Below are positions 35,565-57,607 of a stretch of 64,000 bases of DNA, piece by piece. The DNA is from Candidatus Omnitrophota bacterium (GTDB taxonomy: Bacteria; Omnitrophota; Gorgyraeia; 1-14-0-20-64-10), in contig JAHFFE010000008.1 in NCBI GenBank assembly GCA_023248155.1, positions 6,515 to 70,514 on the forward strand. Reading direction: 5' to 3'. The notes beneath the pieces were generated by a model. That model was not told where the DNA came from and did not search any database. It saw nothing but the letters and a program-made list of their open reading frames with translations. Both the position numbers and the translations under genes were made by a program. How positions within the stretch are numbered: the stretch's first letter is position 1; every line of letters begins with the position of its first letter.

Positions 35565-38500
35565 ATGACCTTAAACCGTTTTTTGCGGCAAACCGCCTTA
35601 TTATTACTGCTTTCATTTTTCGCGCAGTCTGGATTTCCTCAGCCGCTGCTTGAGCAGGCGTTACGCGTTCAAAATCCCGCACAGACGGATGTGGCTGCTC
35701 GCCTCAAGCAATCACTGGATGCCGGCGCCGAAGAAAAACCGGTAGATCCGGGGCAACCGGAGGCACCAAAAAGAATTGTTATTAACACTGGAAATCTTAA
35801 TATTCCCGTTTCACCCAATACCGAATTTGTCATTAATGCCGATAATGTAACTTTGGTTCCAGCAGGATCTTCTCAGCCGCCACAAGCTGCTCCACTACCG
35901 TCTGCGCTTCCCGTTGAACCGCCGCGCGCGCTTCCAGCCCCGGAGGCATCTTCCAGTTCAAAAACTGTCGAACCAAAAACTGTCATTCCCGATTCGATCG
36001 GGAATCCGGATCCTCGCTTGCGCGAGGATGACACGCCTCGAGAAACGGTTTCTCGGCCGTCCATTCCATCCGCGCGTTCGGCTCCAAGTTATTCTCCAAC
36101 GCGTCCGTTGAAACGACTCTTCTTAGTTGCGACCGGCAGTCTGTTGTTTATTACCGCACTGACGCTAGTCTTCTCAATCAATCAATCCGGCAAAAGCTGG
36201 AAGGAGTTTTTCTTTCCTTCGGTCACCCAGATTGTCCCAGAACAGATCGAATCGGATATCAACCCGCCGGAACAAATTGATTTCGTGCCGGCTGAATCGG
36301 CATCCGTTTTCCCGGACGAGGGAACATTTTCCGGTGATCGGAAAGTGATTCAGGCCACTTCCGAGCAGGCTGGGGGAGTCGCGCATAATCCGAACGAAAA
36401 ACTTTCGCCGACTGAATTTGAACAGCAGTTTTATGGACACCAGATCGCTCTTTTGCAGGGACTCGCCGACGCGCAAATTCCGCGCCAGCCGGATGTGCAG
36501 GGAATTTTTAGCCGGCTTCGGATCGCGTCGGTTCCCGGCGAAGATTCCGGACGCAACCGGATTAAAGCGGCGCTGGCCCGTGACCAGGCTGAGGTTGATC
36601 AGGCCGCCGCCGCAGTAATCAAAGTGTTGCAGCAGGAGCAGTTTACAAAAACGGCGTCCCGTTTTAACCGGGTTGAAATAACGCCGGCCACTTGGAAGCA
36701 ATACCAGCAAGCGCTCAACAGCTGGTTTGCCGCGCAGCAGCGTCAGCTCAAGCGACTGGTCGAGGTTCTTGCGGAATTTGTCGAGAAAGACAAGCAACTG
36801 CTTCCGGGAGATAATATCCTGCTGAGGGATTATTACCTTGATTTGACGGCGCACCGGCTGGCTGAAATCTCCGTTGAAGAGTTTCAGGAAAGCCGCCGCC
36901 TGCATGATCTAATGATCCGGCTGGGCGTCGAATTGCCGTTTTCAGCGCTGGAATTGCCGGAGGGACTCGGATATGGCCCCTCCATGGTGCCGGCCGGCCC
37001 GGTTCCACCCGATCAGCTTACCCCGGCCGTTGAACGGCCTGAGCTTCTGCAAAAAACATTGGGCTCCATGCATCTTTTGCTGGCGGCCCGCGTGAAGCGG
37101 ATTGAGGCCCGGCTCGCATTTCTTGACTGGGAGATCAAGGCATACCGTGAAATGATTGGCAAAGACCCCCAATCTAGAACCGCCGAATACGACCGTTGGA
37201 ACACGGAACTAAAAATCACATCCCGTCTTTCTTTAGTGGCTCAGCGCCGCCGGATTCTCGCCCAGCAAGATTACCTCGCTGTGACCGGATTCCTTTTACA
37301 AAACCAGGGGCAAACCCGGGTTGACTGGCAGGCCGCTCCGGCTGCCATAAAAAAATTCCGGGATCAATTGCGCAATGAAGGGAAACTTCCGGAGCAGGTT
37401 GCCTCTGTTTTTCAGGTTTTGTTTGAAAGGGCTCAGAGCCGTCTGCGTGATGCCGAAAAAATAGAATTCTACGAACGGGTTTTCTTTTATACCGGCGGCA
37501 CCCGGGATGCCGTTTGGCGTGACGCTTCCGGCAAGCGCGTTTTCGGTTCCTACGCGTTTACCGGCGGAATCGCATACCTCGATTGGAAAGTCCGACAAGA
37601 ACAGCGTAATCAGCAGCAGATTGAGCGTGATCAGGGTAAAGTCGCTGATCAATTTGAATTACGATTGGCCCTGCAGCGCCGGCAATTAGCCCAACTGGAG
37701 TATGAGCAGGCCGTTTCTGATTTTAGCATGGCCGGCCTGCGCCGTGTTTTGGGGATTCCGACCGGTGCTGGGTCGAGCGGATTAACCCGTGCCGCCCCAC
37801 TCGTGCGCGAGCCGGGCACCGTAGCTCTTTTTTCGGAGCTGGGTGATTTAGGTGAAGTTGCCGATGGGCTTGATTTGTCTGACCGGATGTTAACAGCCGC
37901 GGAACGGCAGACGCTGACCGTTTATGGACTGCCGCAAGATTTGCCTGAACCCGCCCGTAAAAAAGCGGCGGCAACGATGGTCGCGCAGTCGCAGAAAGCG
38001 GCGGCGATTGCCATTCGCGCGCTCTGGCAGCAGCGGATTTGGGCCGCGCAAGAGGCCGATATCGCCCGCCGGGTGGAACTGTCGGAGCTGGAAACTGCTT
38101 CTGATAAGTATCTGGACGCGGTCTATCAGGAAGAACTCAACAGCGTCCGCATATTTGAAATGCGCCGGCTGACTGCCGAGCTGTTGATGGAAGGGTCGTT
38201 AACGCTCAATCAACTGTTGGATTTGTTTAGAATACCGCTTGCCTATCGTCAGGACCCCGCTCATTCAAACCGGTGGTTTGTTTTTTCAAACGATGCTGAT
38301 CTTCTTGATTTCTTTGGTTTAAGCCGCTGGGATTTGAAAGCCAGGGTAGGCGCTTCTGATCCGGCAGAGTACCAGCGGTTGAGCCGGCTTCATGATGAGT
38401 CGGTTCAGCTGGCGATCGTGGCTGGCCGGTATACAAACGGCAATCGGATTGATGCCAAGGCGCATCAGACGGAAATTTTCGCGAAATATAAAGCAGGCAC

Positions 38501-39932
38501 CGGTTGGGATTGTGAAAAGAACAGCGCTGAGATTGCGGGACGGCAATGGATCGATGGTTCGATGACAGAACTGTTAAAGAATAACAACCTTCAGCTGGCA
38601 CAGGGGATGCCGTTGTTTCCGGCGAACCGGCCCGTTCCATCGGCGGTACCATCCGTGGAGGATCTGACCGGGCTGTCTTACCGGGGGATTCCGGAATCTC
38701 CGGGTTACGGCGGATCGGTTATTCTGGACGGCGCGAGCGTTTCGCTGACGGGCGGGACTTATCAACTGTCGATGGCCGGTATCGTTTCCGCCCTGCCTGT
38801 ACCGTTGCAGGATTATCAGGTTAAAGAACATCCGCTAGGTCAGCGGTGGGTTCCGCCGGAGCGGCTGCAGCGGGTTGTTGTCCATGACAGCAACAATCCT
38901 CTGGCCGCCGCGCCTTCGGAAACCGTTTTTGTGGTTCAGCAGGGGCCCGCCGGCAGTCCTTTCCTTGGCAACGGGAAGTACACCGTTGTCAGACCCGGTC
39001 TTTTACCGATCGATCCGCGCGTGGCCTCCGCGCCGGTTCCTGGCGTACGTGCTTCATGGGACCCTCAAGCGAAACAATGGATTCTGCCGGATCGGGTTGA
39101 AGATCGCCAGGTGATCTATTTTTATCCGGTACGCGAATTACAGGTCTTGTTTGAAAACGGCAAGTGGATTCCCCGAGTGAATTTAATAGGAATTATTCCA
39201 CAGATGGTTTCGTGGGAAGAGGCGGGCCGGTTGGCTCAAAACCCTGAGAGGGCTTTGGGGCCGAACCGGACCGTTTTGAAAGTGGGAGATTACGTAAGAG
39301 ATCCTCAAACCGGAAAACGATATGTTTCTTCGAATGGGCAGGGAGGTTTTTTCCAATATCAGTTGACGATTCACCGATATTTGAATTCGCAGGGAGCCGC
39401 CGAGCAGGAGATCGATTTTGTTTCTGAGGCTATTCGCGATACGGATCCTCCGATTGCTCTGAAGCCCGAGAGGTTATCTTCCGGTTCGGGACTGGAAGAA
39501 TTTTTAGGACGGCGGATTGCCGAAGCGCCCGGGTTTCAAGCGGTTGTGATTTCTGCCGAGACAGCGGCCGATTGCCCAGAGCTGGCCGGCGCTGAAGAGA
39601 ATACTTATCAATGGGGGAATCTGCAGCTGATAGTTTTGTCGGAGGAGCCTGCTCAATGGTCTTCCGTAATCACCGGATGGTTATCGCAGCCGAACCTAAA
39701 TTTGACGCTTTACGGTCGTGCCGGCGATCAGTCTCTCTCAGTACTTGGACAGATGCTGGCTGGTGCCGAAGAATCGATTGCGATCCAGGGACCGTACCCA
39801 CCGACGGGACAGAGCTTTTCAACCCTCTTTAAGATGATTCTGGCAAATTTGGCTGGCCTGGAAGAAGCAACTATTTCTGATGCTGATTTGAACCAGGCCG
39901 CAGAGCTGCTCGGATTAGGTAAATACGTATAA
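35565..39932 (+). CDS. Large secreted/anchored coiled-coil protein, paralog A (~1,455 aa). Signal peptide, TM anchor, Pro-rich spacer, conserved N-module, beta-rich C-domain, shared C-terminal domain.
   Basis: The ORF runs 35556..39932; the ATG at 35565 gives MTLNRFLRQTALLLLLSFFAQSGFPQP (signal peptide). A second hydrophobic segment is LFLVATGSLLFITALTLVFSI. The module WKQYQQALNSWFAAQQRQ... is shared with the genes at 40086 and 46417. The C-domain VDPRVASAPVPGVRASWDP...YFYPVRELQVLFENGKWIPRVNL is ~55% identical to that of the 46417 gene. Confidence 0.8.
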   Translation: MTLNRFLRQTALLLLLSFFAQSGFPQPLLEQALRVQNPAQTDVAARLKQSLDAGAEEKPVDPGQPEAPKRIVINTGNLNIPVSPNTEFVINADNVTLVPAGSSQPPQAAPLPSALPVEPPRALPAPEASSSSKTVEPKTVIPDSIGNPDPRLREDDTPRETVSRPSIPSARSAPSYSPTRPLKRLFLVATGSLLFITALTLVFSINQSGKSWKEFFFPSVTQIVPEQIESDINPPEQIDFVPAESASVFPDEGTFSGDRKVIQATSEQAGGVAHNPNEKLSPTEFEQQFYGHQIALLQGLADAQIPRQPDVQGIFSRLRIASVPGEDSGRNRIKAALARDQAEVDQAAAAVIKVLQQEQFTKTASRFNRVEITPATWKQYQQALNSWFAAQQRQLKRLVEVLAEFVEKDKQLLPGDNILLRDYYLDLTAHRLAEISVEEFQESRRLHDLMIRLGVELPFSALELPEGLGYGPSMVPAGPVPPDQLTPAVERPELLQKTLGSMHLLLAARVKRIEARLAFLDWEIKAYREMIGKDPQSRTAEYDRWNTELKITSRLSLVAQRRRILAQQDYLAVTGFLLQNQGQTRVDWQAAPAAIKKFRDQLRNEGKLPEQVASVFQVLFERAQSRLRDAEKIEFYERVFFYTGGTRDAVWRDASGKRVFGSYAFTGGIAYLDWKVRQEQRNQQQIERDQGKVADQFELRLALQRRQLAQLEYEQAVSDFSMAGLRRVLGIPTGAGSSGLTRAAPLVREPGTVALFSELGDLGEVADGLDLSDRMLTAAERQTLTVYGLPQDLPEPARKKAAATMVAQSQKAAAIAIRALWQQRIWAAQEADIARRVELSELETASDKYLDAVYQEELNSVRIFEMRRLTAELLMEGSLTLNQLLDLFRIPLAYRQDPAHSNRWFVFSNDADLLDFFGLSRWDLKARVGASDPAEYQRLSRLHDESVQLAIVAGRYTNGNRIDAKAHQTEIFAKYKAGTGWDCEKNSAEIAGRQWIDGSMTELLKNNNLQLAQGMPLFPANRPVPSAVPSVEDLTGLSYRGIPESPGYGGSVILDGASVSLTGGTYQLSMAGIVSALPVPLQDYQVKEHPLGQRWVPPERLQRVVVHDSNNPLAAAPSETVFVVQQGPAGSPFLGNGKYTVVRPGLLPIDPRVASAPVPGVRASWDPQAKQWILPDRVEDRQVIYFYPVRELQVLFENGKWIPRVNLIGIIPQMVSWEEAGRLAQNPERALGPNRTVLKVGDYVRDPQTGKRYVSSNGQGGFFQYQLTIHRYLNSQGAAEQEIDFVSEAIRDTDPPIALKPERLSSGSGLEEFLGRRIAEAPGFQAVVISAETAADCPELAGAEENTYQWGNLQLIVLSEEPAQWSSVITGWLSQPNLNLTLYGRAGDQSLSVLGQMLAGAEESIAIQGPYPPTGQSFSTLFKMILANLAGLEEATISDADLNQAAELLGLGKYV

Positions 39933-40085
39933 AGTCAGATAATTTTTTAATGATATTTTTGAGGCAAAAGCCATCGGTCTATGGCATACTTACACTAGAG
40001 CGATTGAATAAAAAGTTTCGTGGCGGAAGAACGGGTTTCGCCGCGAGATTTTTATTTAGCTCCCTTTTTTCAAAGATCAAAATAG

Positions 40086-43000
40086 ATGAAGAAAATCAGA
40101 TTTCGTCAAACCATCGCGATTGGGCTGCTGATGGCGTTCTCCGTTTCATCGGTGACGCCGGGAGGGGCGGCCGTATCCTCCAGCCGCGCCGACACGCTGC
40201 GCGCGCTGAATGTTTCCGAAGCGGATAACTCTGGTTTGGAAGAATCCCTTAAACGTCCTGATTTTTTGGCGTCGGCGGAGCCGTCCGTCCGTCCAGCCAG
40301 TCTGCCTGGTGCCCAGACAAATCCACCGCAGCGCCGCCGGTGGCCTTTAGTCGTAGCCAGCCTTTTGGCTGTTTCTTTCTTATTTCCCTCTCTGATCGGT
40401 CCTGAAAAGAAAGATCAAAATCCTAAAGTACAACCTCCACCTCCGATCACTCAGCGGGTTGCACGGAAACTCCGTGTGCCGCCGCCCATTCCCGATCGTC
40501 CATTGCCTCCCATCCCTGAGATTGATAAAGAAGATGCTCCTTTGCGTGATTTGCAGGCAGGAATTCTCGAGATTCTCGCCCGTTTCTCAGAACCGGGCGG
40601 AGTGCTTCGCCAGCAGGAAAGAGACCGGACCGAAAAACTATTCGATAAGGGCGCAGTCGGAAAAAACCAGGAACTATTCGCAAACTTCAATACGCTTCGT
40701 GATCGTGTTTTTGTCAGACAAGCCGCTGCCATCCGGATTCTGGAAGAATATATTACCGGTGATGAGAAAACACGGAACAATCTTTGGGACGATTATAAAG
40801 CGGCCATTGATGCCTGGTTTGACGCGCAGCAGGATGAACTCGAAGCGCGGGTTGATCTGACTTCCTATTTGCTTGACCAGGCGCGTAGTTTACATGCCAA
40901 GGGAGTAATTGGCGAACAAGACCTTATTAAAAAAGAAGTAGCTCACGACAGCGCCAGACTGATGGTGCGGGAGTTTTCACTTTACCGTCGATTTTTTGTG
41001 AATTTGAGAAAAATCGGGGTGGCATTGCCGTTTCCAAAAACCCAGCTGCCGGCGGCCGGCGGCAATTTCGTTCCTCAACTGGTTCCGCCAATCCCCAATG
41101 GCGAGCCGTCGCTTTCAGTGTTGGAAAAGCAGGAAATCCTTCTGGAATCGTACGATCTTATACAGGAACTTTTAACGCTCTACCAGGACCGTTTGCGACA
41201 GGGGCAGAAAATCAGGATCGATCATTTGCGCCGCATCGTCGCTCTGCGTGAAAAAAAAGTGGCCACTCAAATAGAGTTAGATCGCGCCCATTTCTTGAAT
41301 CAGCAGGCCGCATTAATGGAAATTCAGATCCGCCGTTTGGAAGACCAGAGGCAGTTTGTCGAGGCCTATAAAATTCTGGTGACGACCGAAGGCCTGGATC
41401 AGCTGCCGTTGAAATATCTGAATCATCCGCTGGTGCGCCGTGCTACCGGCGAAATTGCACTTGAATTGGGTTATGCCAAATCGGCTGGTGAGGCGCTGGA
41501 GTTTGATCCGTCCATAATTCTTTCTGTCATAGGGGACTTAAACCCAATTCGCACACTGATCTTTTTAAATGCGCAGCAAGATTTAACAACGGCCGTGTTG
41601 AAAGAAGCGGATGGTTTGGTTGAAACACTGCAGCTGCCTGAGGGCGCCGGGAGCAGGATGGGATTGGTTGCCTATACCGGAGCCGTGCTGCGGTCCTCAC
41701 TGGTTGCCAATCGCCGATTGCCAAATACCATTACAATACGGGAAATTCTAACTCAGCAGCATCAATACGATCAGGCGAAACTGCAACAGGAAGCCGGCCA
41801 ACTTGTCCGCCAGCAGATTTTACTCCGGATCAAACTGGGGCTTCCAGTCGGCGATGTCGAATCGACGCTTTCTCCGGAGGGCCGCCGTACGCTGGAGTTT
41901 TCTTCAAACGGTGTTCTACAGCCCGGATCTTTGAAAGATTTTGATGAAACGGATGATTTGACTCCCGAGATCGGGCAGGACAATCGCGCGCGCTTACTCG
42001 AGATCGGACAGCTTGTCAGAACGGCATTCGGCACAAGAGATCGGCTTACTCCGTTGCAGATCCGCCAATCGAGCGATGAACTACTGGATGCGGAACAGCG
42101 TCTTATGGCGGTGCGGATTCGCAGTCTTGCCCGGCAGAAAGAGTTAAATTCGGTGCTGACTGCCCAAGTCAGGGAAGGCGTGAAAACTGGCGCCCTCAAT
42201 AAAAGAGAATTGGCCGATGCCGAAGCATGGGAAGAACAGTCACGCGTGGGAGATGCTGAATCGGCCCGTTTGTTGGTTGATTTATTGAGCCGTAAACAGC
42301 TTTCTCGTGAGCAATTGGCGCAACTGCTGGATGTTGCTCCGTCAAAATTAGCCGGTCGTATTCCGGCCGGTGCCAAAGAAGTGATTGAGCGATTGAATGG
42401 CCCTGACTGGTTTGCTCCGGCCGCCGTGATTGGTCCGGAAAATCTCGACGAGTACCCGCTATGGAGAGCCGAGCATAACCGTCTGGTGAATGACGAACGG
42501 CAGATTTTACGGGATGCGCAAGCCAGCCGCACCACGGAGTTGAGTAAGCGTCTTGATCAAGAGAAGGCACTGGTTAAAACAAGGACTTCCACCCTGCAAT
42601 CTGAAGAAGCAGCCCAACATGATTTGACTCAGGGGGGAATGCAGCTGAATTTGCTCGGACGGTCTCGCGAGATGGATGAATGGCTTCGGGATCACGGGAT
42701 CGATCTTCCCAGTCCGATTGATCCGCGGCCTGCCGGATTACCGACGATAGATGATTTAAGAAATGGTTTACGCGGCCGCAACTTACCGCTTCAGCCGGAA
42801 GCTCCATTCTATGTTGCGATTCCCGGCCAGGCCGATAGTAAAGCGCTCAGTGCCGGATTTTATGCGCCCGATGCGGTTGTTTTTCTGTCCGGGCCTCCAA
42901 AAACCTCTCCCGATCATATTCGGGCGCCTGTTTTTGGCGTGGATGACTGGAATGTGCTGAAAGAATTTTTTACGGGTGCTTCAATCACCGATTCAAATGC

Positions 43001-44315
43001 CAACGGTGAGCCGCGGCTCCGGTTAGGCCGTGTTACGGTGAATCAGGTGAATCCCTCTACCGATTTTGATCGGGGCAACGGACGGGCTGTTATCCATCTG
43101 GATGGGTATGAGTTGGTGAGGCGTCCGGCGCAGTTTGCTCCGGGGTTGCTATCGAGTTTGGCGGAAGCGTGGAATCCCCAGCTGGTTCCGGAAGAAAAAG
43201 TAGAAGATCGAAAAATGGTGGTTGGTTATTATGTGCGGGTTGTCGAAATTGGTGATGACGGCGTCGAACGGAAAAGAGTGGTGGGGGTCCTTCCGGCGGA
43301 AATGTCATGGACTCAGGGGGGACGATTGTCTGAGAAAATGTCATTACCCAATCAAAATCCGAATTCATTCCCCAATTATCTTAAAGAAGTTGCTCCAAGG
43401 CACTACGGGTGGATTACGCCGATTGACAGCTTGTTGTCTGATCCGGCGACTGGCGAGCCGCTGGTTTTCAGAAAGGAAGGCAATGAGTTTGTCTATTTGA
43501 GAGTTCGTCTTTATCAGCGGGACCTGGCTGACGGCACCATTGAAGACGAGCTTGGTTTTGATGAAGAGCCGGTGGTTGTTCCGGAGGAGGAAGAAGAAAA
43601 TCTACAACTGCCGGTGCCGGTCGCGCCGCCGGTTAACCCGGCTCCTCAACAACCGAATGCTGCCGCGCCTGTTTTACCGCTGCCGGAGCCGGCTGTCCGC
43701 GAGGTGAAACTGCTTCTGACTCAGCTTCCGTCCGGCGATTTTGCCGTCCATACCTATGCAGGAACCTATCGGATGGATGGCTTATCCATCGGGCAGGCCC
43801 CTAGCAATGCTTTTGATGAATGGCTGGCAAACCACTCCTCTGACGGGGCTCTTCTTGCGAAAGAGCCGTTGAATTTGCTTCCGATCGAGCTGTCATCCAA
43901 CGAACAGATTTTTATTGAAAGCGGATTGATGGCGGAAGCAGACCGAGTTGCTTTGTCGCGGCAATTGGCGATGTCCGGCATCACCAATGTCAACATTCAT
44001 TGGGTCGGCAGCAACCAGGATGAGGTTAGCGCTGTCTCCGATACCGTTCTCGCGCTTCGCCAGACTGGAACGCCGGTTGTGATGATGGTCAGCCCGGCGT
44101 ACCAAGGTGCGCTCGAACGGATGTTTGGTATCGGGGGTATTCATAAAGAACTTCGGCCGACGATCGGTATTGTGAGCGGCCTTGCCAATACAAGGGTTGT
44201 TTTGATGGCGTTGTTGACCAATATGGCGTTTCTTTCCCGCTTAACGGTTTTTGACGGTGTTTCATCCGGTCTTGAAGAGAACGCCACGGCGTCTGTTTTC
44301 CAATTCATGGCGTAA
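40086..44315 (+). CDS. Large secreted/anchored coiled-coil protein, paralog B (1,409 aa). Signal peptide, TM anchor, Pro-rich spacer, conserved N-module, shared-type C-terminus.
   Basis: ATG at 40086 gives MKKIRFRQTIAIGLLMAFSVSSVTPGGAAV (signal). A hydrophobic anchor WPLVVASLLAVSFLFPSLIG follows. There is a Pro-rich stretch, PPPPITQRVARKLRVPPPIPDRPLPPIPE. The N-module WDDYKAAIDAWFDAQQDELEARV...IGVALPFP is paralogous to the genes at 35565 and 46417. A long coiled-coil region is present. Confidence 0.8.
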   Translation: MKKIRFRQTIAIGLLMAFSVSSVTPGGAAVSSSRADTLRALNVSEADNSGLEESLKRPDFLASAEPSVRPASLPGAQTNPPQRRRWPLVVASLLAVSFLFPSLIGPEKKDQNPKVQPPPPITQRVARKLRVPPPIPDRPLPPIPEIDKEDAPLRDLQAGILEILARFSEPGGVLRQQERDRTEKLFDKGAVGKNQELFANFNTLRDRVFVRQAAAIRILEEYITGDEKTRNNLWDDYKAAIDAWFDAQQDELEARVDLTSYLLDQARSLHAKGVIGEQDLIKKEVAHDSARLMVREFSLYRRFFVNLRKIGVALPFPKTQLPAAGGNFVPQLVPPIPNGEPSLSVLEKQEILLESYDLIQELLTLYQDRLRQGQKIRIDHLRRIVALREKKVATQIELDRAHFLNQQAALMEIQIRRLEDQRQFVEAYKILVTTEGLDQLPLKYLNHPLVRRATGEIALELGYAKSAGEALEFDPSIILSVIGDLNPIRTLIFLNAQQDLTTAVLKEADGLVETLQLPEGAGSRMGLVAYTGAVLRSSLVANRRLPNTITIREILTQQHQYDQAKLQQEAGQLVRQQILLRIKLGLPVGDVESTLSPEGRRTLEFSSNGVLQPGSLKDFDETDDLTPEIGQDNRARLLEIGQLVRTAFGTRDRLTPLQIRQSSDELLDAEQRLMAVRIRSLARQKELNSVLTAQVREGVKTGALNKRELADAEAWEEQSRVGDAESARLLVDLLSRKQLSREQLAQLLDVAPSKLAGRIPAGAKEVIERLNGPDWFAPAAVIGPENLDEYPLWRAEHNRLVNDERQILRDAQASRTTELSKRLDQEKALVKTRTSTLQSEEAAQHDLTQGGMQLNLLGRSREMDEWLRDHGIDLPSPIDPRPAGLPTIDDLRNGLRGRNLPLQPEAPFYVAIPGQADSKALSAGFYAPDAVVFLSGPPKTSPDHIRAPVFGVDDWNVLKEFFTGASITDSNANGEPRLRLGRVTVNQVNPSTDFDRGNGRAVIHLDGYELVRRPAQFAPGLLSSLAEAWNPQLVPEEKVEDRKMVVGYYVRVVEIGDDGVERKRVVGVLPAEMSWTQGGRLSEKMSLPNQNPNSFPNYLKEVAPRHYGWITPIDSLLSDPATGEPLVFRKEGNEFVYLRVRLYQRDLADGTIEDELGFDEEPVVVPEEEEENLQLPVPVAPPVNPAPQQPNAAAPVLPLPEPAVREVKLLLTQLPSGDFAVHTYAGTYRMDGLSIGQAPSNAFDEWLANHSSDGALLAKEPLNLLPIELSSNEQIFIESGLMAEADRVALSRQLAMSGITNVNIHWVGSNQDEVSAVSDTVLALRQTGTPVVMMVSPAYQGALERMFGIGGIHKELRPTIGIVSGLANTRVVLMALLTNMAFLSRLTVFDGVSSGLEENATASVFQFMA

Positions 44316-44325
44316 ACGCGCTAAA

Positions 44326-46401
44326 ATGGGCGACATGATCAGAAAAACAATTACGGCGATAGTTGCCGGGTCGATGGCGCTGGTTTCTTCAGCGCCGGCA
44401 TCTCTTTTTATCAATTCTGCTCAGCCAGTTTGTCTGCGTTCCCTCCAGGGCGGTGAATCATTTAGAGTTATTTCGGGTATGGAAGAAAAACTAACTGCTC
44501 AAACAGTTACCGGTGCTTCCGATTCCGGAGCGCTCGATCGGCGTACTGTGCTTAAGGCAGGTGCTCTCAGCATAGGCGCTTCCATTCTAAAGTGGGCTCG
44601 ATTATTGCCCGACGATGCCATTTTTGGACAGGAGGGGAAAGCGGTGCAACCTAAAGGCGCTCTGTCTTTGCTGGCCAAAGAATTGGGTGGTAGAAGCGAT
44701 CTTTCGATCATTGTTTGGGATCCATCCAGCATCGGGGGACTTCCCGGTTTTTTTGATCGGGCAGTTCAGGCCGGCGTGACCCGCGTCTGGGTCAGCGGAT
44801 TCCGGTTCAATCAGATGGACAATGCCCGCCAGAAAGCTTTTTTTAATCAGGCTCGCGTTTCCGGCCTGCGCTCCATCGGGTTCATTGACGGTAATTACGA
44901 TTGGGCTAACAATCCCGCGTTTGTAAAATCACATTACGAAAAACTGATTGTCACACTAACCCAGTTTCACAATGATAAATTATTGGGTCGTCTCAAAATC
45001 GTGTTTGCGGCCGATATTGAGCCTTGGACCGGGCCCAATGGAAAGAATTGGAATGGTGATTTCAAGCCGTCGACCGACTTGGTTTGTAACTGCGTTATTC
45101 CGGAAATCAGCGGATTTGCTCAAAGAACAGGCCGTGTTGATAGAACAAATCTGATTACGCTCGTTATGCCATTCTGGTCTCAGAATGGTACGAAGCTGGA
45201 TAATGACCTCGTGGTTAAAGGAGTTGAAGATCTACCCAATACCACGCTGGCTCTGATGAGTTACCGGAATTCCGCTCTTGAAATCGAAAGTGTTCTTAAT
45301 GACACGCGAAGTCGTTTAAGAACAACACCGGCACGGGATCTCCGCTGGGCGTTCGGAGGAGAGACGCTTCCACCCGGTGAAGTAGGCGGGCAGCACGTCA
45401 CTTTTCACGGAAGATTAAAACGGGTTCCTCTGGAACTGTTGCGTGTGATCCGCCGGCTTTCGGAGAGTGAGCGTAAACAGTTGGATGAGGTTTTTATTCA
45501 TTTTGCAAGTCCTGTTGCCGCCGATAAAGCGATTAAGGAATGGCTGGAGAGTCCTGCTGAGGAACCGGCAAAAGGAAAAGATTTTTCAGTCAGAGGCGGC
45601 CAGGCAAAGATATCCAAAGATGGTTCGCGTCTGGAATTTCAAATGGATCTGGGCGATTTGGCCGATCAATCGTTAGTCGCTGTGGCACTGGTGAGAACCG
45701 ACACCTGGTATCCTCAACCGTATGATAATGCAAGCGCCCAGGTACCGGTGCAGGTGGATAAGGACGGTGTTGGCAATGTGGTCGTGTTTGCGGCCGACCG
45801 GAGCTCGTTTGTCGGAGAACAAACGAAAGGCCGCGCCGTGATCATTCTGACACCCACTGATTTTCAAGCTGTAGTAAAAGACAGACTCAACCCCGCACGG
45901 TTAGAACTCCGCGCTCAGAAAATCATCGTATTCGATAAAGAGGGAAAAGCCTCGGTTGTTAATCGGTTGCCTCGCGGCGGTCTGGAAGAATCGATCCGGC
46001 TTCCGGCGCATGCGACCGATGAACGCGTTATTATTTTGACGCCGGACACCGCTGTCGTCGGCCTGGAACTGCTGCGCGGATTTCGTCCCGAGGCAGGCGA
46101 GAAAATCCCGGTGGCGGTGATTGTGCGCAACGCGGTTCAACATTCCCAATTGCTTGATTTATTGGAGGCCCAGTCGATTCAGCTGCAGTTTCCGGTCGTT
46201 GACCTTTCTGAGACGGGCCAAAATCTTGGGGAGGCCATCGTTGCGCTTCAGGAAGATGCCTGGATTGCCTCTCTCAATCCGTTAGTGATCGACACGATGG
46301 CCGCGTTCCGCCAGCTGGGCACATTCCTCGGTATTCCTGAACTGGACCAGCGCCTGCTGGACAAATGGCTGGACGAACAGGGAGTCGCTTCCGCGGCGTA
46401 A
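44326..46401 (+). CDS. Secreted protein (~691 aa from ATG 44326; alternative start 44479 gives a Tat-type leader). Its C-terminal ~110 aa are nearly identical to the C-terminus of the 46417 gene.
   Basis: The track ORF 44251..46401 overlaps the upstream gene, so an internal ATG is the likely start. ATG 44326 gives MGDMIRKTITAIVAGSMALVSSAPASLF (signal-like). The downstream MEEKLTAQTVTGASDSGALDRRTVLKAGALSIGASIL is a textbook twin-arginine leader if translation starts at 44479. The C-terminal PLVIDTMAAFRQLGTFLGIPELDQRLL is shared with the next gene. Confidence 0.7.
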   Translation: MGDMIRKTITAIVAGSMALVSSAPASLFINSAQPVCLRSLQGGESFRVISGMEEKLTAQTVTGASDSGALDRRTVLKAGALSIGASILKWARLLPDDAIFGQEGKAVQPKGALSLLAKELGGRSDLSIIVWDPSSIGGLPGFFDRAVQAGVTRVWVSGFRFNQMDNARQKAFFNQARVSGLRSIGFIDGNYDWANNPAFVKSHYEKLIVTLTQFHNDKLLGRLKIVFAADIEPWTGPNGKNWNGDFKPSTDLVCNCVIPEISGFAQRTGRVDRTNLITLVMPFWSQNGTKLDNDLVVKGVEDLPNTTLALMSYRNSALEIESVLNDTRSRLRTTPARDLRWAFGGETLPPGEVGGQHVTFHGRLKRVPLELLRVIRRLSESERKQLDEVFIHFASPVAADKAIKEWLESPAEEPAKGKDFSVRGGQAKISKDGSRLEFQMDLGDLADQSLVAVALVRTDTWYPQPYDNASAQVPVQVDKDGVGNVVVFAADRSSFVGEQTKGRAVIILTPTDFQAVVKDRLNPARLELRAQKIIVFDKEGKASVVNRLPRGGLEESIRLPAHATDERVIILTPDTAVVGLELLRGFRPEAGEKIPVAVIVRNAVQHSQLLDLLEAQSIQLQFPVVDLSETGQNLGEAIVALQEDAWIASLNPLVIDTMAAFRQLGTFLGIPELDQRLLDKWLDEQGVASAA

Positions 46402-46416
46402 TGTGGTGATAATCCT

Positions 46417-49400
46417 ATGAAAAAACAATCAGTTTTTTATCCTCGAAAAGTAATCGCTTTTTTTATTTTTTTGGTATTTCTTTCAACCAGCGTCGGAGTC
46501 AACCCATCGTCCAAAAATTTCCCGGATGTTTCGCCTGACGCGCTGCGAGCCGTTAGCGGCGCGGAGTCGGCGGCTCAGCCGGGACTTGAAGAGTCTCTGA
46601 AAGAATCCGCCGGCCTATCTCGCAGCGGATGGTCGCTTAATTGGCTGGCCGGTATTACATTTGCGTTAACGGCAGCGTTGGATTGGGGCGAACCGGTGGC
46701 TGCCCAACAGGCGCAGCCGTCCCCGTTCGTAGCGACCCTCGATAATTTTCCGTCCGGCCCGGAATACAGTCGTTCCTCTGAAACCTTGAACCGTTATTTG
46801 AAAACCCTGGTGCCGGAACTGCCAGGGCCGGTCATTCTGACGCCGGGCGCCACGGTCCGTATCATCGCTATTCATGAGACTAAAGACCAAACAGGAGAAA
46901 TCGACGGCGCCTATGTGACGCTGACGCCTTCGAAGGAAACGATTGTGGTGCGCGCCGGTGACAACCGCTGGCTGGTTCCCGCCGGTGTTTCGTTAAAAGT
47001 CCATATCGACCGCAGGAAAAAAGAAACGCGCGTTTACCGTGAATCGGAAGTCACACGGCTGGCGGTTGAATTATCTGACATTGCCGGGCTTTCTGATCTG
47101 ATGGACCGTTTTGATGTGGAGGGGCCGGTCGTTGGCGCAACGCGGTTTAAATCCAGCGGAAAACTGGTGATGGGAGGAATTATTTATCGCGACGGGGGCG
47201 TTCGCCATTGGAATATTGTGCCGATTGATCCGGGATCTTCCGTTACGGTGATCGCGCCCGATGGCACGGAATCGACGGTGCCGGCCTTAAAACCGTTGCG
47301 TTTGATTATTCAAGACGGACAAGCGCGCATTGATCCGAAACAGCAATACAGTTCGGTGCGAAAGCCGGCATTTTTGCCGCCGGCGGTAACAGGCCGCTTC
47401 GATGCGGTGCCGGTGGTCGAAAACCCGAGCCCGATCGTCCGATCGAGCCGTGCTGCTCAGCCGGTTCCGGCTGCTTCGGTCCGCCGTTTCATTCCGCCGA
47501 AATTGGATCCGGAACTTCCGAAAATTCCGGAGCTGCAACTGGTAGCGGCGATTCCATCCAGTGTGACGGCCCGGCCGGCCGCAGATTCTCAATTCACGGA
47601 CTCTCGCAAAAAAGAGCCGGCTCCAATGCCGATGCCGGCCGATCTGCCGCGGACGGCTCCGGTCATAGCAGCAGACCGCGTCCGTGTCCGGCAAAATCCG
47701 CGCAATCCGGATCTGTCTCCGAATGTTGGACGGAACGATTCGGGTCCCGGCCCGTCCTCTCCGGATATTGCCGTGAAAGATAGAACACCGGTTCCTCCAG
47801 CAGAGGCATCGCCGGTTGCGTTGGCTCCAATTGCAGCGGGGGAGGCTCCCGTTCGCCGTGTTGCACCGGTTCCTCCTGTGGATCTCCCGGTTCCGCCACC
47901 CTCCGTCGTAGCCGGTGGTAATTCTCTGGTCCGTTTGGATCGTTTGCCGCGCGAGCCGGCGGTTTCACCGGTGCCCGCTCGCTCGATTCCAGAAAGTGAG
48001 TTATTTTCGGAGAGTCTTAATTTCGCGGATCGATCGCCGGTGATTGACGCTCCTCAGCCACATCCGAAATTGGCCGAACCGCCGGTAGGTGTCGTTAATA
48101 CCACACGTCGCCGAGCCCCGGCGTCAAAGCCGGCGGAAGAGTTAATCTCTCCGGTGCCATTGTCAGAGCCACTTTCAGCGGAATCGACTGTTGAATTACG
48201 CAAGATTGAAGGGGATATCCTTAACAGCATGGCGCGATTACACCAGTGGGCCGTCGATGCTCTCAACAATCATGCGGCCCGCGTGGCCGAACAGCGGCAA
48301 AAGAAAGCAGGCACCCCGGCGGATAGAAACATTGCCGATTTCAACACGCTGAAAGCCGATGTCGATGCGGCAATGGGACGTGTTATTCTTGTCCTGCGCG
48401 ATTATGTCAGGGCCGATGGCCCGGCGCGCGCCGGTTTTTGGAACCGGTATCAACAGGCAGTCCAGAATTGGTTTGACGCGCGCGAGCGGCAGGTTGGCGC
48501 TTATCTGGAACTGGCCGATGATTTATTACAGCGCGATCGTCAGTCGGCTTCCAACCAAGGCAATACCAGCACGCGTGACCTAGAGCGGTCGCAGGCTGCC
48601 AGCGAAATTGCCGGATTCACGCTTCTGGAATTAACCGCCTTCCGTAATCTGTACGACGACCTCATTGAGCTGGGTGTTCCGGTTCCGTTCCTGAACGCGG
48701 CTATGCCCGATGAAATTGGTTACACGCCCTATTCCGTTCCGGTCATTCCCAGTTTGCAAAAGCCGGCAGCCGCGGCCGACCGTGCCCGTTTTTTAGAGAA
48801 GGCCTTCAATCAAATCGCCGAAATTTTACGGCTGAACAGTCAAAAACTGGGTGTTGATATCCGATTGCGTCTATCGGAATACCAGCGGTTTAAAAACAAT
48901 TTCTATTCCACTCCGCGGGGAGGCACGTTACCTCAAGGCACGAGCAGGGAAGAGATGAACTATGCCAGTTTTCTCAGGGATGAGGCGATTTTTCAGCGGG
49001 CCCAACAGCAGCGCCTTTCGGCTCAAATCAATTTTGTTGAAGCATTACAAGTTTTGTCGCAGACGCAGGGGCAGCCGTTTTTGCCGGCTGACAATGAACA
49101 GGTGCGTGCGGTTGTGGCCAACTATGCCGTTGAACATGGATACCCTCCTGACATTGGTCAGGAGGTGGTTATTTCGGTGGTTGGTTTAAGAACGGTGCGC
49201 GACACGATCTTTATCTCCGCCCAGGAACGGCTTTCGCGGGCGATCTCGGATGAAATGGCGGCGCGGGTTGTTCTGTCTCAAAAATTAATCGTCTACCTCC
49301 AGGATGACTTCAAACGGATGGTTCATGCCAACCTACGTGTTCCCGGCGCCTACCCTGCCTGGGACATTTTCGTTGCCGAATATAAACTCCGGCAGGCTCG

Positions 49401-51615
49401 GCAACAACTCGCGATCACTCAACTTGCGCAGGAAAACGATACGGTCAGAGCTCAGCTTGGTTTACCGCGCAGTAATATTGAGCTGGCTGTGCCGCCAGCA
49501 GTGCGCAGTATTCTGGAAACCAATAGACAGTCGCTTCTGCCGGGTTCTTCCATCACGGAATCAACGGATAGTTTTAAAGAATGGATTAAAGGGGCTGATG
49601 CCAGCGTTTTATCGCCGTTGGATACCGCAGAGAACCTTGCGGCCACTTTTCTGGGATTGGTAAATCCTCCGTCAGAGCCCAAGGCGGATGATTTGGTTCG
49701 CCGGCAGGCCGAAAACGAGCGGAAGATGCTCGAGGCCAAAATCAAGATGCTTGAAAACGAAAACTGGCTGGCCAAGGCGTTGGCCTCTATCCGTGAATCA
49801 ACCGAAGCAACCCATCCCGGATCTGTAACGAAGCCGGAATTGGAAGATGCCCGTAACTGGCGCGCGCAAATTGAACTGAGAAACGCGGAAATAGCCGTAA
49901 TTCGTGCCGATATCGTCCGGCTAGAACCTGGGTTGGATCCGGTCCGGTATGCCGAGCTAAGAGGGGAGTACAATCGGCTCGTTTTAGAGCGGTTGCGTGT
50001 TGCCAGCCGAGTTAATAGAGAGCGGATGGATGTTCTTGATGGCCGCTTGAAGATTGAGGGAATTCTGGAATTGAATGCCGAAGCCTGGAGGAGGTTTGAC
50101 GCCGCTTACGCGGCGGGTACTCCGCAACCTCTTAACCAGATTTTAGGACAACTCAGGAATGCGGGAGCTGTCCGCCGCACTGATTCCATTGACAGAGCGA
50201 TTCAAAGCTGGGGACAGACAAACGATTATGGCAAGCTGTTAGAACAAGCGCTCGCGCGTAATGAAGAACTGGTTCAACGGGGCGCTTCGCTCGATGCTCA
50301 CTCGTCTCGGCCGGCCTTGCCGACGCTTGAAACGGTTCTTTTCGATAATAGTAGTAAGTCGCAAACCTATCCGGATAACCGTTCCGAGGTTTTCACGGTC
50401 ACTTTGGGCAAAGGGGGAGTTCCTCAGCCGCTGCAGATTGCCGGCCCTTTCCGTATGGACGCGCTGGTTATTCCGTCCTATGTTTCTCCGCGTGTCGAGC
50501 CCTATCAGAATGCGCATGATGATCTTCGTCCCCGGGACTGGCAAGCTCCGCGCGATTCACTCGAGAAAGTCGATCTTCTTGACTCGACTGCGCCCACCGC
50601 ATCCGGCCGGTTCGGCGCCGGGTCTTTCTTCCGTTACCGGCAAACGCCCGCTCTTTCTTCCGAAAACACGACCGGCCTGTCGACATTCCTGAGGCCGGGT
50701 GTATTACGCGTCGATCCACGGGTGGCCTCTATGCCGGTTCCGGGCGTTCGCGCTTCATGGGATCCTAATAAGAAACAATGGACTTTGCCTGACAAGGCTG
50801 AAGACCGCCAGGTCGTTTATTTTTATCCGGTGCGTAAATTAGATATTGTGTTTGAAAATGGGAAATGGGTTCCCCGGGTAAATTTATTTGGAATTGTTCC
50901 TCAGCCTGTTTCGTGGAGAGAAGCGGGTCAACTGGCAGAAACACCCCAACGGACTTTAGGTCCGAACCGGAGCGTTTCGAGAGTGGGAGAATATGTAACC
51001 GATCCATTGACGGGGGATCCCTATGTTTCTTTTAATGTGGAGGGTGGTTTTTCCAGATACCGTATTAATGTGACCTCGTATCAAACCCCTGAAGGAAAAG
51101 TTGAGCAGGAGTTCAGTTTTATTTCCGAGACTATTGGCGATACCGATGCGCCGCGTTCTGCCATAATTGGAACCGCGGCCGCCGCATCCGGACAGGAAGA
51201 ATCGATTGTACTTCCGGCCGGCGCGACCAACGGCAATATAATTATTTTCACGCCAGAGACGGTCGAGGCTGGGGTTGAACTGATGCTGAATCGGTTTCGC
51301 TTGGCGGCCGGAGAGAAAATTCCGGTGGCCGTGATCGTGAGCGACGCCGTTCAGCATTCCCATGTTTTGGATTTACTGGAAGGCCAACCTGTTGAATTAC
51401 TGTTTCCAATCATGGACCTTTCCGTGACTGGAGATAGCCTGAAAGAGGCGATTGATGCGCTTGCGGCAGATGCCGAAAGTTACTCGCTAAAACCGCTGGT
51501 CATCGACACGATGGCCGCGTTCCGCCAGCTGGGCACATTCCTCGGTATTCCGGAACTGGACCAGCGTTTGCTGAACGAATGGCTGGATCAGCAGGGAGTT
51601 GTTTCCCAGGCATAA
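46417..51615 (+). CDS. Large secreted/anchored coiled-coil protein, paralog C (1,732 aa). Signal peptide, TM anchor, long Pro-rich low-complexity stalk, conserved N-module, beta-rich C-domain, shared C-terminal domain.
   Basis: ATG at 46417 gives MKKQSVFYPRKVIAFFIFLVFLSTSVGV (signal). An anchor WSLNWLAGITFALTAALDW follows. A Pro-rich stretch is encoded at ~47400-48160. The N-module WNRYQQAVQNWFDARERQV...LGVPVPF and the C-domain VDPRVASMPVPGVRASWDP...YFYPVRKLDIVFENGKWVPRVNL are paralogous to the 35565 gene. The last ~120 aa match the 44326 gene. Confidence 0.85.
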   Translation: MKKQSVFYPRKVIAFFIFLVFLSTSVGVNPSSKNFPDVSPDALRAVSGAESAAQPGLEESLKESAGLSRSGWSLNWLAGITFALTAALDWGEPVAAQQAQPSPFVATLDNFPSGPEYSRSSETLNRYLKTLVPELPGPVILTPGATVRIIAIHETKDQTGEIDGAYVTLTPSKETIVVRAGDNRWLVPAGVSLKVHIDRRKKETRVYRESEVTRLAVELSDIAGLSDLMDRFDVEGPVVGATRFKSSGKLVMGGIIYRDGGVRHWNIVPIDPGSSVTVIAPDGTESTVPALKPLRLIIQDGQARIDPKQQYSSVRKPAFLPPAVTGRFDAVPVVENPSPIVRSSRAAQPVPAASVRRFIPPKLDPELPKIPELQLVAAIPSSVTARPAADSQFTDSRKKEPAPMPMPADLPRTAPVIAADRVRVRQNPRNPDLSPNVGRNDSGPGPSSPDIAVKDRTPVPPAEASPVALAPIAAGEAPVRRVAPVPPVDLPVPPPSVVAGGNSLVRLDRLPREPAVSPVPARSIPESELFSESLNFADRSPVIDAPQPHPKLAEPPVGVVNTTRRRAPASKPAEELISPVPLSEPLSAESTVELRKIEGDILNSMARLHQWAVDALNNHAARVAEQRQKKAGTPADRNIADFNTLKADVDAAMGRVILVLRDYVRADGPARAGFWNRYQQAVQNWFDARERQVGAYLELADDLLQRDRQSASNQGNTSTRDLERSQAASEIAGFTLLELTAFRNLYDDLIELGVPVPFLNAAMPDEIGYTPYSVPVIPSLQKPAAAADRARFLEKAFNQIAEILRLNSQKLGVDIRLRLSEYQRFKNNFYSTPRGGTLPQGTSREEMNYASFLRDEAIFQRAQQQRLSAQINFVEALQVLSQTQGQPFLPADNEQVRAVVANYAVEHGYPPDIGQEVVISVVGLRTVRDTIFISAQERLSRAISDEMAARVVLSQKLIVYLQDDFKRMVHANLRVPGAYPAWDIFVAEYKLRQARQQLAITQLAQENDTVRAQLGLPRSNIELAVPPAVRSILETNRQSLLPGSSITESTDSFKEWIKGADASVLSPLDTAENLAATFLGLVNPPSEPKADDLVRRQAENERKMLEAKIKMLENENWLAKALASIRESTEATHPGSVTKPELEDARNWRAQIELRNAEIAVIRADIVRLEPGLDPVRYAELRGEYNRLVLERLRVASRVNRERMDVLDGRLKIEGILELNAEAWRRFDAAYAAGTPQPLNQILGQLRNAGAVRRTDSIDRAIQSWGQTNDYGKLLEQALARNEELVQRGASLDAHSSRPALPTLETVLFDNSSKSQTYPDNRSEVFTVTLGKGGVPQPLQIAGPFRMDALVIPSYVSPRVEPYQNAHDDLRPRDWQAPRDSLEKVDLLDSTAPTASGRFGAGSFFRYRQTPALSSENTTGLSTFLRPGVLRVDPRVASMPVPGVRASWDPNKKQWTLPDKAEDRQVVYFYPVRKLDIVFENGKWVPRVNLFGIVPQPVSWREAGQLAETPQRTLGPNRSVSRVGEYVTDPLTGDPYVSFNVEGGFSRYRINVTSYQTPEGKVEQEFSFISETIGDTDAPRSAIIGTAAAASGQEESIVLPAGATNGNIIIFTPETVEAGVELMLNRFRLAAGEKIPVAVIVSDAVQHSHVLDLLEGQPVELLFPIMDLSVTGDSLKEAIDALAADAESYSLKPLVIDTMAAFRQLGTFLGIPELDQRLLNEWLDQQGVVSQA

Positions 51616-54122: not shown

Positions 54123-55315
54123 ACAAGCAGTCATTGCGCAATGACATGTTCTTCGTTCTCGTTTTATGCTTAATGCTGTGCGCCACCCCTGTTTTTGCCG
54201 CCGAGGTCTCCGTTAGAGACGTCCCGGCATTCCCGGAGGGTACCGCCATTCTTCCGATTGAACAACCGCGCATGCAGCGCGGCCGGTTTGGCGCCTATGC
54301 GATGAGTCCCTCAAAAATGGGTATTTTCCCGGACTTCAAAATAGCAAAACGGCCGGGGTCGTCGGTGGAACCGATGTATGTCCGCTTTCGCAAAGAACCG
54401 GGGCCCTCTTTTTGCGGTTCTTACTGGATTATTGCCGGCGATTTGCGCAAATACGCCACGCTGACCTTCTGGATCCGCGGCGAGCGCGGCGGCGAGAATT
54501 TTGAAATCGGCCTCAATGACTTAATCGCCAGCCGCCGCGAAGATGCGATCATGGGAGGCTCCATTTACCGGTATCTTCCGGGCGGCATCACCAAAGAATG
54601 GCAGCAGGTGAAAATTCCGCTCGAAGATTTTTTCGGCGCCGATTTTTCCCGCATACACAGCCTTGTTTTTTCGTTCTCTGATCCGGGGGAGGGAGCGCTC
54701 TGGATCGACGGCTTTGTTTTCCATGAAGAAGCGCTGGTCCAGCGGGAGGACGAAATCATCCGATCGGGCGAACTGCTGCTGGACAACTTCGACCACAGTG
54801 ATTTGAACCTGCTGGGCCGCAAAACCAACGCTTACAAAAAAACACCGTCGTTTTGCGCGGCCAGCCGTGTTGAGAAACCGCGCCGTGGAAACCAGGGCCG
54901 CTCGTTGCGCCTCGATTATGATAAGCAGTCGACCGGGTGGGCCGGTTATTTTTCGCTGTTTAACCAGATTGACGGCGCTTATTACGATTTAAGCCAATTT
55001 AAGGAGATCCGTTTCTGGGTCCGCGGCGCGCGCGGTAAGGAGGTTTTTGATGTCGGCATGGCCGACCGTTCCTGGTTGACTATTGGTGATTCGGTCAAAT
55101 GTGGTACAATAGATAAATACTTAAAAAAAGGCGTCACAAAAGATTGGCAGGAAGTAGTAATTCCGTTTAAAGATTTTGGCAAATTAGATTGGTCACAAAT
55201 GGGTTCTTTTGTGGTAAATTTCTCTAGGCCGGCAAAAGGAACCCTTTTTGTGGATGATGTCCGGGTGATTCGGAAATCGGACGAAGAACTGCTGAAGGAG
55301 TGGGATAAACAATGA
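54119..55315 (+). CDS. Secreted protein with two tandem beta-sandwich (CBM-like) modules (398 aa).
   Basis: There is an ATGA overlap with the upstream stop. The signal peptide is MNKQSLRNDMFFVLVLCLMLCATPVFAAEV. There are two copies of the FW(I/V)RG..G.E.F.IG(L/M).D ... YL..G.TK.WQ.V.IP motif (CGSYWIIAG...FWIRGERGGENFEIGLND and WAGYFSLFN...FWVRGARGKEVFDVGMAD). Confidence 0.75.
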   Translation: MNKQSLRNDMFFVLVLCLMLCATPVFAAEVSVRDVPAFPEGTAILPIEQPRMQRGRFGAYAMSPSKMGIFPDFKIAKRPGSSVEPMYVRFRKEPGPSFCGSYWIIAGDLRKYATLTFWIRGERGGENFEIGLNDLIASRREDAIMGGSIYRYLPGGITKEWQQVKIPLEDFFGADFSRIHSLVFSFSDPGEGALWIDGFVFHEEALVQREDEIIRSGELLLDNFDHSDLNLLGRKTNAYKKTPSFCAASRVEKPRRGNQGRSLRLDYDKQSTGWAGYFSLFNQIDGAYYDLSQFKEIRFWVRGARGKEVFDVGMADRSWLTIGDSVKCGTIDKYLKKGVTKDWQEVVIPFKDFGKLDWSQMGSFVVNFSRPAKGTLFVDDVRVIRKSDEELLKEWDKQ

Positions 55316-55923: not shown

Positions 55924-55966
55924 GGGTTATGGCATATTTAGAGTGGGTCAAGAGGAGGGAACTAAA

Positions 55967-57606: not shown

Positions 57607-57607
57607 G

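Follow-up and report, generated by a model that had tools for sequence, protein, structure and literature searches.

What are the three large proteins encoded between a pair of giant genes and a carbohydrate-binding operon in an Omnitrophota genome, and what might they do there? The stretch analysed in this study (the window) comprises 64,000 nucleotides of a Candidatus Omnitrophota bacterium (GenBank assembly GCA_023248155.1, contig JAHFFE010000008.1, positions 6,515 to 70,514 of the forward strand), and the genes in question, here called A, B and C, are listed with their parts and neighbours in Table 1. An initial annotation, made from the DNA letters alone, had described their products as paralogous stalk-like proteins. 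The comparisons reported here show that A, B and C are true paralogues, and profile searches indicate that they belong to a new and very rare protein family, here called the stalk family, which is restricted to a narrow group within Omnitrophota and has no known relatives.

Paralogy, architecture and rarity of the stalk family

All three pairs of proteins were matched by BLASTP: A and B are 23% identical over 1033 amino acids (aa; E 2e-22), B and C are 24% identical over 1073 aa (E 2e-53), and A and C are 49% identical over 256 aa (E 2e-67), with a further match of 27% over 251 aa (E 4e-18). These matches persist under SEG filtering and composition adjustment, and the three proteins are collinear across approximately 1000 aa outside their proline-rich regions. 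Shuffled cores (30 residue shuffles each) scored no more than 25 bits, compared to 65, 191 and 239 bits for the real pairs. A low-complexity origin of the similarity is ruled out, because the alignment is confined to cores with a proline content of 5.5-6.1%, while the spacers (20-31% proline) do not align. The motifs W-x2-Y-x2-A-x3-WF-x-A and LGV-x-LPF, which the initial annotation had located correctly, occupy columns that are conserved when the three proteins are aligned. A, B and C are also one another's closest relatives (22-31% identity, a range in which the A-C figure is inflated by a swapped patch described below, versus 15-21% to members elsewhere), which makes a tandem expansion plausible; identity outside the patch is only about 25%, and the duplications are old. 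The family is lineage-specific, as had been proposed, and its expansion in situ is plausible but not recent.

The three proteins follow one layout, consisting of a leader, a second hydrophobic segment preceded by arginine (the putative anchor), a proline-rich spacer of variable length, a helical part of about 750 aa with LG-x-LP ... VPP-x-P linkers, a beta-rich domain of about 250 aa, and a C-terminal alpha/beta cassette of about 140 aa. Hydrophobicity scans found the N-terminal signal-like segment in A, B and C, while the second segment is strong in A (aa 185-203) and B (aa 87-105) and weak in C; the signal peptide, membrane anchor and spacer originally attributed to all three proteins are therefore present in general, with the anchor clear in two of them. 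The hidden Markov model (HMM) of the family covers aa 291-1299 of A. Although the open reading frame (ORF) of A opens at a TTG, the ATG nine nucleotides downstream is the likelier start, because the A orthologue P0003 begins MTIKQF.

Two regions were modelled with AlphaFold2. The model of the B core, built with an eight-sequence alignment, has a mean predicted local distance difference test score (pLDDT) of 58.7 and a predicted template modelling score (pTM) of 0.52. Core residues 30-440 reach pLDDT 70-89 and are predicted to form helices of 30-45 residues that are split by the LG-x-LP ... VPP-x-P linkers and packed antiparallel in the monomer at this pTM; the long coiled coils of the initial annotation are not established. 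The second model, of the C head and C-terminal domain, for which four locus-derived rows were left out of the alignment, has a mean pLDDT of 52.4; its head lies at 50-66, and the last 100 or so residues form a fairly confident (pLDDT 70-80) alternating beta-alpha domain. Foldseek searches of the Protein Data Bank (PDB) with both models returned no match with E<1e-3, and profile searches of PDB sequences with the core and the cassette returned nothing below E 0.02. Likewise, Pfam and NCBIfam contained nothing above cut-offs for A, B, C or the neighbouring gene product D.

The rarity of the family was apparent at a much larger scale. A HMMER profile of the three cores (alignment A1) matched only seven proteins among 1.84 billion cluster representatives, three of which represent A, B and C; the others were P0004 (1657 aa, E 1e-19) and, weakly, P0005, P0006 and P0007, which share the whole architecture of A, B and C. 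P0003 and P0004 were both retrieved with this earlier A1 profile. Back-translated pattern scans based on the A/B/C core alignment A1 identified no further member in the GTDB species genomes or the JGI metagenomes, and the eight-sequence alignment contained no stretch conserved enough for a pattern scan. Word-index searches with full-length C, the eight-sequence core alignment and the C-terminal cassette were uninformative, returning only self matches or four fragments, probably because unrelated proteins use up the limit of 8000 candidates.

Further relatives were reached through gene E, the first gene of the downstream operon, which served as a handle because it is far better conserved than the stalk proteins: between the window and locus L006, E is 64% identical while the stalk proteins are less than 25% identical, a fast divergence relative to their neighbours. 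Homologues of E were found in Candidatus Omnitrophota metagenome-assembled genomes, a few of which carry the depositors' labels Planctomycetia, Verrucomicrobia or Lentisphaeria, and in 27 metagenome loci. The gene order E-F-H-I-J-K is kept in more than 15 Omnitrophota loci, and the region upstream of E always encodes large, hypervariable proteins. A local profile iterated over all fetched loci converged on approximately 14 distinct stalk-module proteins, namely A, B and C, P0003 to P0007, a 2005-aa protein (L021/L036), a 1556-aa protein (L023/L031), a fragment in L046, and three more in L005 and L006. The features that define the resulting profile of about 940 positions are the W..Y..A...W motif, the LG-x-LP and VPP-x-P linkers and the beta-rich domain; A, B and C each match it in full (positions 1-940, E<1e-260), and the profile also matches proteins in L002, L005 (three members), L006 (two members), L021 and L023. 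The products of G1, G2 and D did not match it, which places D outside the stalk family.

In two of these loci the module forms the C-terminal part of a giant protein (at least 4997 aa in L005 and at least 5257 aa in L006), and L005 encodes a further stalk-module protein of at least 2288 aa. Judging from these arrangements, the stalk module is a cassette of about 1000 aa located C-terminal to a membrane-anchoring region, with an N-terminal extension that ranges from about 150 aa to several thousand. On the P0004 contig and in L005, L006, L021/L036 and L023/L031, the stalk gene either immediately precedes an E homologue or adjoins a giant gene.

Exchange of heads and C-terminal cassettes

Comparison of A with its orthologue P0003 (66% identical) revealed a mosaic. 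Identity per 50-aa block is 66-84% throughout, except in A residues 1150-1300, where it drops to 20-40%, and in exactly those blocks the identity between A and C rises from about 22% to 70-74%. At the DNA level, the same region appears as a repeat (38991-39290 versus 50692-50991, 75% nucleotide identity), one of only two 300-nucleotide repeats in the window. The other consists of the 3' ends of D and C, whose last 142 aa are 68% identical and whose DNA (45976-46401 versus 51187-51615) includes a perfect run of 50 nucleotides, which indicates recent gene conversion between otherwise unrelated genes. The block identities and the two repeats together show that the head of A or C and the C-terminal domain of C or D were exchanged by recombination within the locus. 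The initial annotation had recognised the similarity of A and C here correctly but read it as an additional domain confined to those two proteins; BLASTP comparisons of B with A and C and the three-way alignment place a divergent form of the same beta-rich domain in B, so that the A-C similarity is better described as a recombination patch on a domain common to all members.

At least four dissimilar types can be distinguished among the C-terminal domains. Type 1, defined by an iterated HMM, occurs in A, G2, P0003, P0004 and the giants of L009, L030 and L032; type 2 occurs in C and D; type 3 in B and the stalk proteins of L021 and L023; and type 4 in the L005 giant, P0006, the L006 giant and the L021 upstream protein. 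Adjacent genes are often of one type (G2-A, D-C, L005 giant-P0006). On its own contig (L048 1-16056), P0003 has the same kind of flanks as A, following a giant gene and preceding one with the leader of B. The giant shares with G2 only its C-terminal 215 or so aa (48% identity) and one weak stretch, and the downstream gene shares with B only the 67-aa leader (73% identity). In these comparisons, leaders and C-terminal cassettes are conserved while the bodies between them are replaced.

Possible roles of the stalk proteins

According to published surveys, Omnitrophota giant proteins are poorly conserved and have been proposed as surface, adhesion or predation factors (PMC10066038; bioRxiv 10.1101/2023.11.21.568195) that form a cell coat or attach to or degrade partner cells (the same sources and bioRxiv 10.64898/2026.06.07.730766); no description of the stalk family or its motifs was found in the passages of these three sources that were consulted. 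The reading favoured here, tentatively and with confidence just short of even, is that A, B and C are membrane-anchored helical stalks with a fast-evolving head, accessory to a surface apparatus of giant and carbohydrate-binding proteins. We infer the extracytoplasmic location, the stalk and head roles and the partnership with neighbouring genes from sequence features. An outward helical region and an exposed, diversifying head are suggested by the arginine-flanked anchor and the TonB-like proline-rich spacer, and arginine or lysine precedes the anchor in most members, so that under the positive-inside rule the stalk would point outward. In this model, each protein would be fixed to the cytoplasmic membrane by its anchor and extended by a stalk made up of the spacer and helical region, with the beta-rich domain as the distal head, exchanged by recombination and expected to be the fastest part to diverge. 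The cassette, whose types recur in G2 and D, would mediate a shared step of docking, sorting or assembly and dock the protein to a common partner. The stalk proteins would then be accessory surface or envelope parts working with the giants and with the carbohydrate-binding and glycoside hydrolase (GH)-like operon, most plausibly where these host-dependent bacteria contact a partner cell or a polysaccharide surface.

Several observations weigh against this assignment. AlphaFold2 gives low confidence for the remaining helices and the beta-rich region of about 270 aa, and homologous internal repeats among the helical units were not accepted (best hhalign probability 60%). P0005 stands alone among housekeeping genes, and linkage to giant and carbohydrate-binding genes is thus not obligatory. 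In addition, a segment resembling a Sec signal precedes the anchor segment, which itself resembles a twin-arginine translocation (Tat) signal, and simple rules cannot place both the leader and the stalk. Finally, P0005 (L002), the L005 giant and the L005 downstream protein carry an extra transmembrane segment between head and cassette, followed by an arginine-rich stretch and the sequence GLEE; A, B and C lack this segment, so that the side of the membrane on which the cassette lies would vary among members.

Among known systems, the favoured stalk reading resembles fibrillar adhesins and phage tail fibres, such as streptococcal M-like proteins and trimeric autotransporters, in which an anchor and a long helical stalk carry a distal variable domain that recombination swaps between paralogues. 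The stalk proteins differ in having an additional alpha/beta cassette after the head, no homology was detected, and Pfam and NCBIfam identified no LPXTG, YadA anchor, SLH or collagen-like element in A, B or C. Compared to the Omnitrophota giants already described ('Archaeovorin' and dockerin-type; West-Roberts et al. 2023, Seymour et al. 2023), the stalk proteins are alike in phylum, kind of locus, poor conservation, scarcity of Pfam domains, membrane anchoring and the proposed role in surface contact, adhesion or predation, and two giants, in L005 and L006, themselves contain the stalk module. However, the Archaeovorin and dockerin giants exceed 30 thousand aa and are marked by SecA-DEAD, C39 or S8 peptidase, glycosyltransferase or dockerin/TSP3 domains, whereas A, B and C are 1.4-1.7 thousand aa long (1.4-7.5 thousand for the window set including G1 and G2), and Pfam places no SecA-DEAD, C39, dockerin, TSP3 or enzyme domain in A, B or C. 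The window locus continues into a CBM30/CBM9/PDZ operon, and not into the pilZ or type II secretion system genes described for the published giants. The stalk family is new, but its order of anchor, spacer, stalk and head is a familiar one, found here in an unfamiliar and poorly understood setting.

A different emphasis is suggested by the ends of these proteins. Approximately 20 independent large proteins from more than 10 loci begin with a K/R-rich n-region and a hydrophobic h-region (often ending AxA), followed by [AT]-L-R and, in most of them, by [SAG]-G-L-E-E-x-L 10-15 residues later; no NCBIfam or Pfam model matches this leader. G1, G2, A, B, C and D together contain 11 copies of GLEE compared to 0.63 expected; the motif is found within leaders, at the boundary leading into the C-terminal cassette, and some 25 residues short of the C-terminus. 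A repeat at the DNA level was rejected as its source, as the codons vary, and a literature search for a GLEE motif returned no papers; GLEE may be a recognition or processing site. Moreover, the six large window proteins all end in alanine or valine (QA, SA, YV, MA, AA and QA for G1, G2, A, B, D and C, respectively; the stalk proteins end ...KYV, ...FMA and ...SQA), as do nearly all relatives, while E to K end in glutamate or glutamine. The second hydrophobic segment follows the leader and is preceded by RR or RRR, and the Tat consensus [ST]-R-R-x-F-L-K is perfect in P0005 (TRRDFLKG...ANA) and partial in D and G2, with RRRW in B; this motif is not N-terminal but sits after a leader of 50-140 aa with its own hydrophobic segment.

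The leader, GLEE and the alanine or valine C-termini together hint at a shared, undescribed sorting or assembly route, and it is conceivable, if somewhat unlikely, that A, B, C, D, G1 and G2 are best understood as cargo of such a pathway, in which GLEE at module junctions would be a possible site of cleavage or recognition, the C-termini would be read by the TPR-PDZ protein K, and the stalk would be one body type carried. The L048 comparison, in which leader and C-terminal domain are conserved and the bodies differ, agrees with this idea, as does the retention in the operon of gene K, whose PDZ domains are closest to those of C-terminal processing peptidases. However, K lacks the peptidase domain and its PDZ matches score about 30 bits against family cut-offs above 200, no protease or sortase-like enzyme was identified in the locus, and the C-terminal domains are of several dissimilar types; the argument is one of sequence pattern. 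Cargo status is compatible with the stalk reading and does not exclude it. A more elaborate combination of the two, in which the locus would be an undescribed sorting and assembly system with a bipartite leader (signal-like segment, [AT]LR, GLEE, then an RR anchor) on giants, stalk proteins and D, GLEE would mark division or recognition, K would capture the cassettes ending in alanine or valine, and the stalks would scaffold recombining heads on the coat of episymbiotic nanobacteria, is unlikely in its full form.

An alternative role as trans-envelope adaptors or conduits, by which A, B and C would export or energise the giants as analogues of HlyD/RND, TolC or TonB/TolA proteins, is improbable. 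Such proteins have a membrane anchor, a proline-rich or helical span across the periplasm and a distal domain in contact with an outer component, which the anchor, spacer and long helices of A, B and C resemble, and the neighbouring giants would need export. The TonB/TolA resemblance extends over an N-terminal anchor, a proline-rich spacer (31% proline in B), an extended region (helical in TolA) and a C-terminal globular domain, but the stalk proteins are 4-6 times longer, have an extra N-terminal leader, and are multi-copy and hypervariable; no TonB_C (PF03544) or TolA domain was found in A, B or C at E<=0.1 in Pfam or NCBIfam, and no ExbBD or TolQR genes are present in the window. The predicted long antiparallel helical hairpins and the membrane anchor recall HlyD/RND adaptors and TolC, although the domain order differs, with helices first and then beta in the stalk proteins. 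Membership in either group was rejected. The faint RND_mfp match (TIGR01730) was found in B alone (residues 236-295, E 0.039) and reached 12.9 bits where 94.9 would be required, and the TolC/OprN chains in the Foldseek list (E 0.5-0.9) had template modelling scores (TM-scores) of 0.05-0.14; these values are noise, and Pfam found no HlyD or outer membrane factor (OEP, PF02321) domain. In addition, machine components are usually conserved and single-copy, while the stalk family diverges faster than any neighbour, occurs in one to three copies, exchanges domains and in places forms the C-terminal end of the giants themselves.

A cytoplasmic stalk core, with a cleaved signal and a stop-transfer anchor making an intracellular scaffold under the membrane for multi-pass giants, is very improbable: a Sec-like signal and a second hydrophobic segment, read literally, return the chain to the cytoplasm, some relatives have the further segment after the head, and published Omnitrophota giants include typically cytoplasmic enzyme domains (bioRxiv 10.64898/2026.06.07.730766), but an N-in export signal typically has arginine clusters like those before the second segment and AxA-like sites like those that follow it in P0004 and P0005, the spacer is proline-rich and TonB-like, and a recombining, fast-evolving head beside secreted carbohydrate-binding neighbours fits an exposed location.

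Few parts of bacterial genomes are as poorly understood as the giant-gene loci of Omnitrophota, and surveys stress their sequence-unique, mostly unannotated proteins. The locus now gains a parts list that includes a stalk module, free-standing or fused to giants, exchangeable heads and C-terminal cassettes, the leader and terminal motifs, and a conserved carbohydrate-binding, GH-like and PDZ operon. If the proposed roles are true, these parts could provide handles on the builders of the coat or contact apparatus, on the host-contacting parts and on a dedicated sorting route; if the roles fail, a documented new family with clear intralocus recombination is still left.

The gene array around A, B and C

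The window holds a single long gene array on the forward strand, in the order G1, G2, A, B, D, C and then E-F-H-I-J-K (Table 1). Gaps of 10-15 nucleotides separate B, D and C, 53 nucleotides separate C from E, and the genes from E to K overlap. No intrinsic-terminator-like site was found in the forward-strand intergenic gaps of the array. The co-oriented A, B and C are probably co-transcribed, which the layout fits without proving it. The best sigma-70-like site of the region (10/12 matches) lies at 35436-35464, just upstream of A.

Table 1. Coordinates in the window of the genes A, B, C and D, the giant genes, the downstream operon and shared sequence elements (CBM, carbohydrate-binding module).
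Feature	Position	Strand	Description or basis
G1, giant gene	76..22710	+	7544 aa; GLEE motifs present; C-terminus Ala
G2, giant gene	22899..35396	+	4165 aa; leader of the A/B/C kind; about 19 hydrophobic segments
G2 C-terminal cassette, type 1, common to A	34986-35372	+	Iterated HMM
A, stalk-family paralogue	35565..39932	+	1455 aa from ATG; ORF opens at TTG 35556
A putative hydrophobic anchor LFLVATGSLLFITALTLVF, 3' of proline-rich stretch	36114..36176	+	Kyte-Doolittle
A conserved core: helical region, then beta-rich domain	36426..39452	+	Three-way alignment, family HMM
A motifs W..Y..A...WF.A and LGVELPF	36690-36941	+	Within helical region of core
A beta-rich head patch of C type, recombination tract	38991..39452	+	DNA repeat, P0003/C identity profile
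A C-terminal alpha/beta domain, cassette type 1	39522..39929	+	SGLEE before; end LAGLEEATISD...KYV
B, stalk-family paralogue	40086..44315	+	1409 aa; leader TLR...SGLEESL; type 3 C-terminal cassette
B putative anchor, RRR before	40344-40400	+	Kyte-Doolittle
B core	40542-43592	+	Family HMM; proline-rich spacer of B 31% proline
D	44326..46401	+	691 aa; leader with GMEE; Tat-like RR segment; C-terminal cassette as in C
C, stalk-family paralogue	46417..51615	+	1732 aa; leader ALR...PGLEESL
C core	48196-51153	+	Long proline-rich and beta insert of C 20% proline
C head patch	50692-51153	+	Alignment
C C-terminal cassette, type 2	51187-51612	+	Alignment
Operon E-F-H-I-J-K	51669..58597	+	Pfam, paralogy, gene order in other loci
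E, CBM30 + TIM-like middle domain + CBM9		+	First gene of operon; Pfam
F, H, I, CBM30/CBM11-like		+	In operon; Pfam
J, paralogue of E middle domain		+	In operon; protein comparison
K, transmembrane segment + TPR + two PDZ domains	57503-58597	+	Last gene of operon; Pfam
Leader sites	22899-23200, 35565-35720, 40086-40260, 44326-44560, 46417-46600	+	Leader also in L005, L007, L009, L016, L020-L023, L035
GLEE sites	3553, 18658, 23145, 30639, 34776, 39489, 39855, 40233, 44268, 45979, 46582		

No Pfam domain was found in G1 or G2 (11.7 thousand aa together), and matches to Pfam and NCBIfam did not rise above noise. G1 showed no hydrophobic 19-mer above threshold and no signal peptide, while the published Omnitrophota giants are rich in transmembrane helices; its start, a GTG near the window edge, is a putative call. 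The hydrophobic segments of G2 are concentrated at aa 1666-2090. Homologues of G2 in other loci reach up to 49% identity over 290 aa, and in L030, L032 and L044 they lie directly upstream of an E-type gene or one gene away. This placement points to A-B-D-C as a variable insert, with a G2-type giant on one side and the E-K operon on the other. For the middle domain of E, a PDB match was obtained to a chain annotated as putative GH97 (10yv_A, E 1.6e-5). Just downstream of the operon, a small ORF (59180-59722) encodes a signal-like N-terminus and approximately six repeats of a calcium-binding-like D-x-N-x-D-G-x-x-D motif (NFDGKPD, NGDGNPD and similar).

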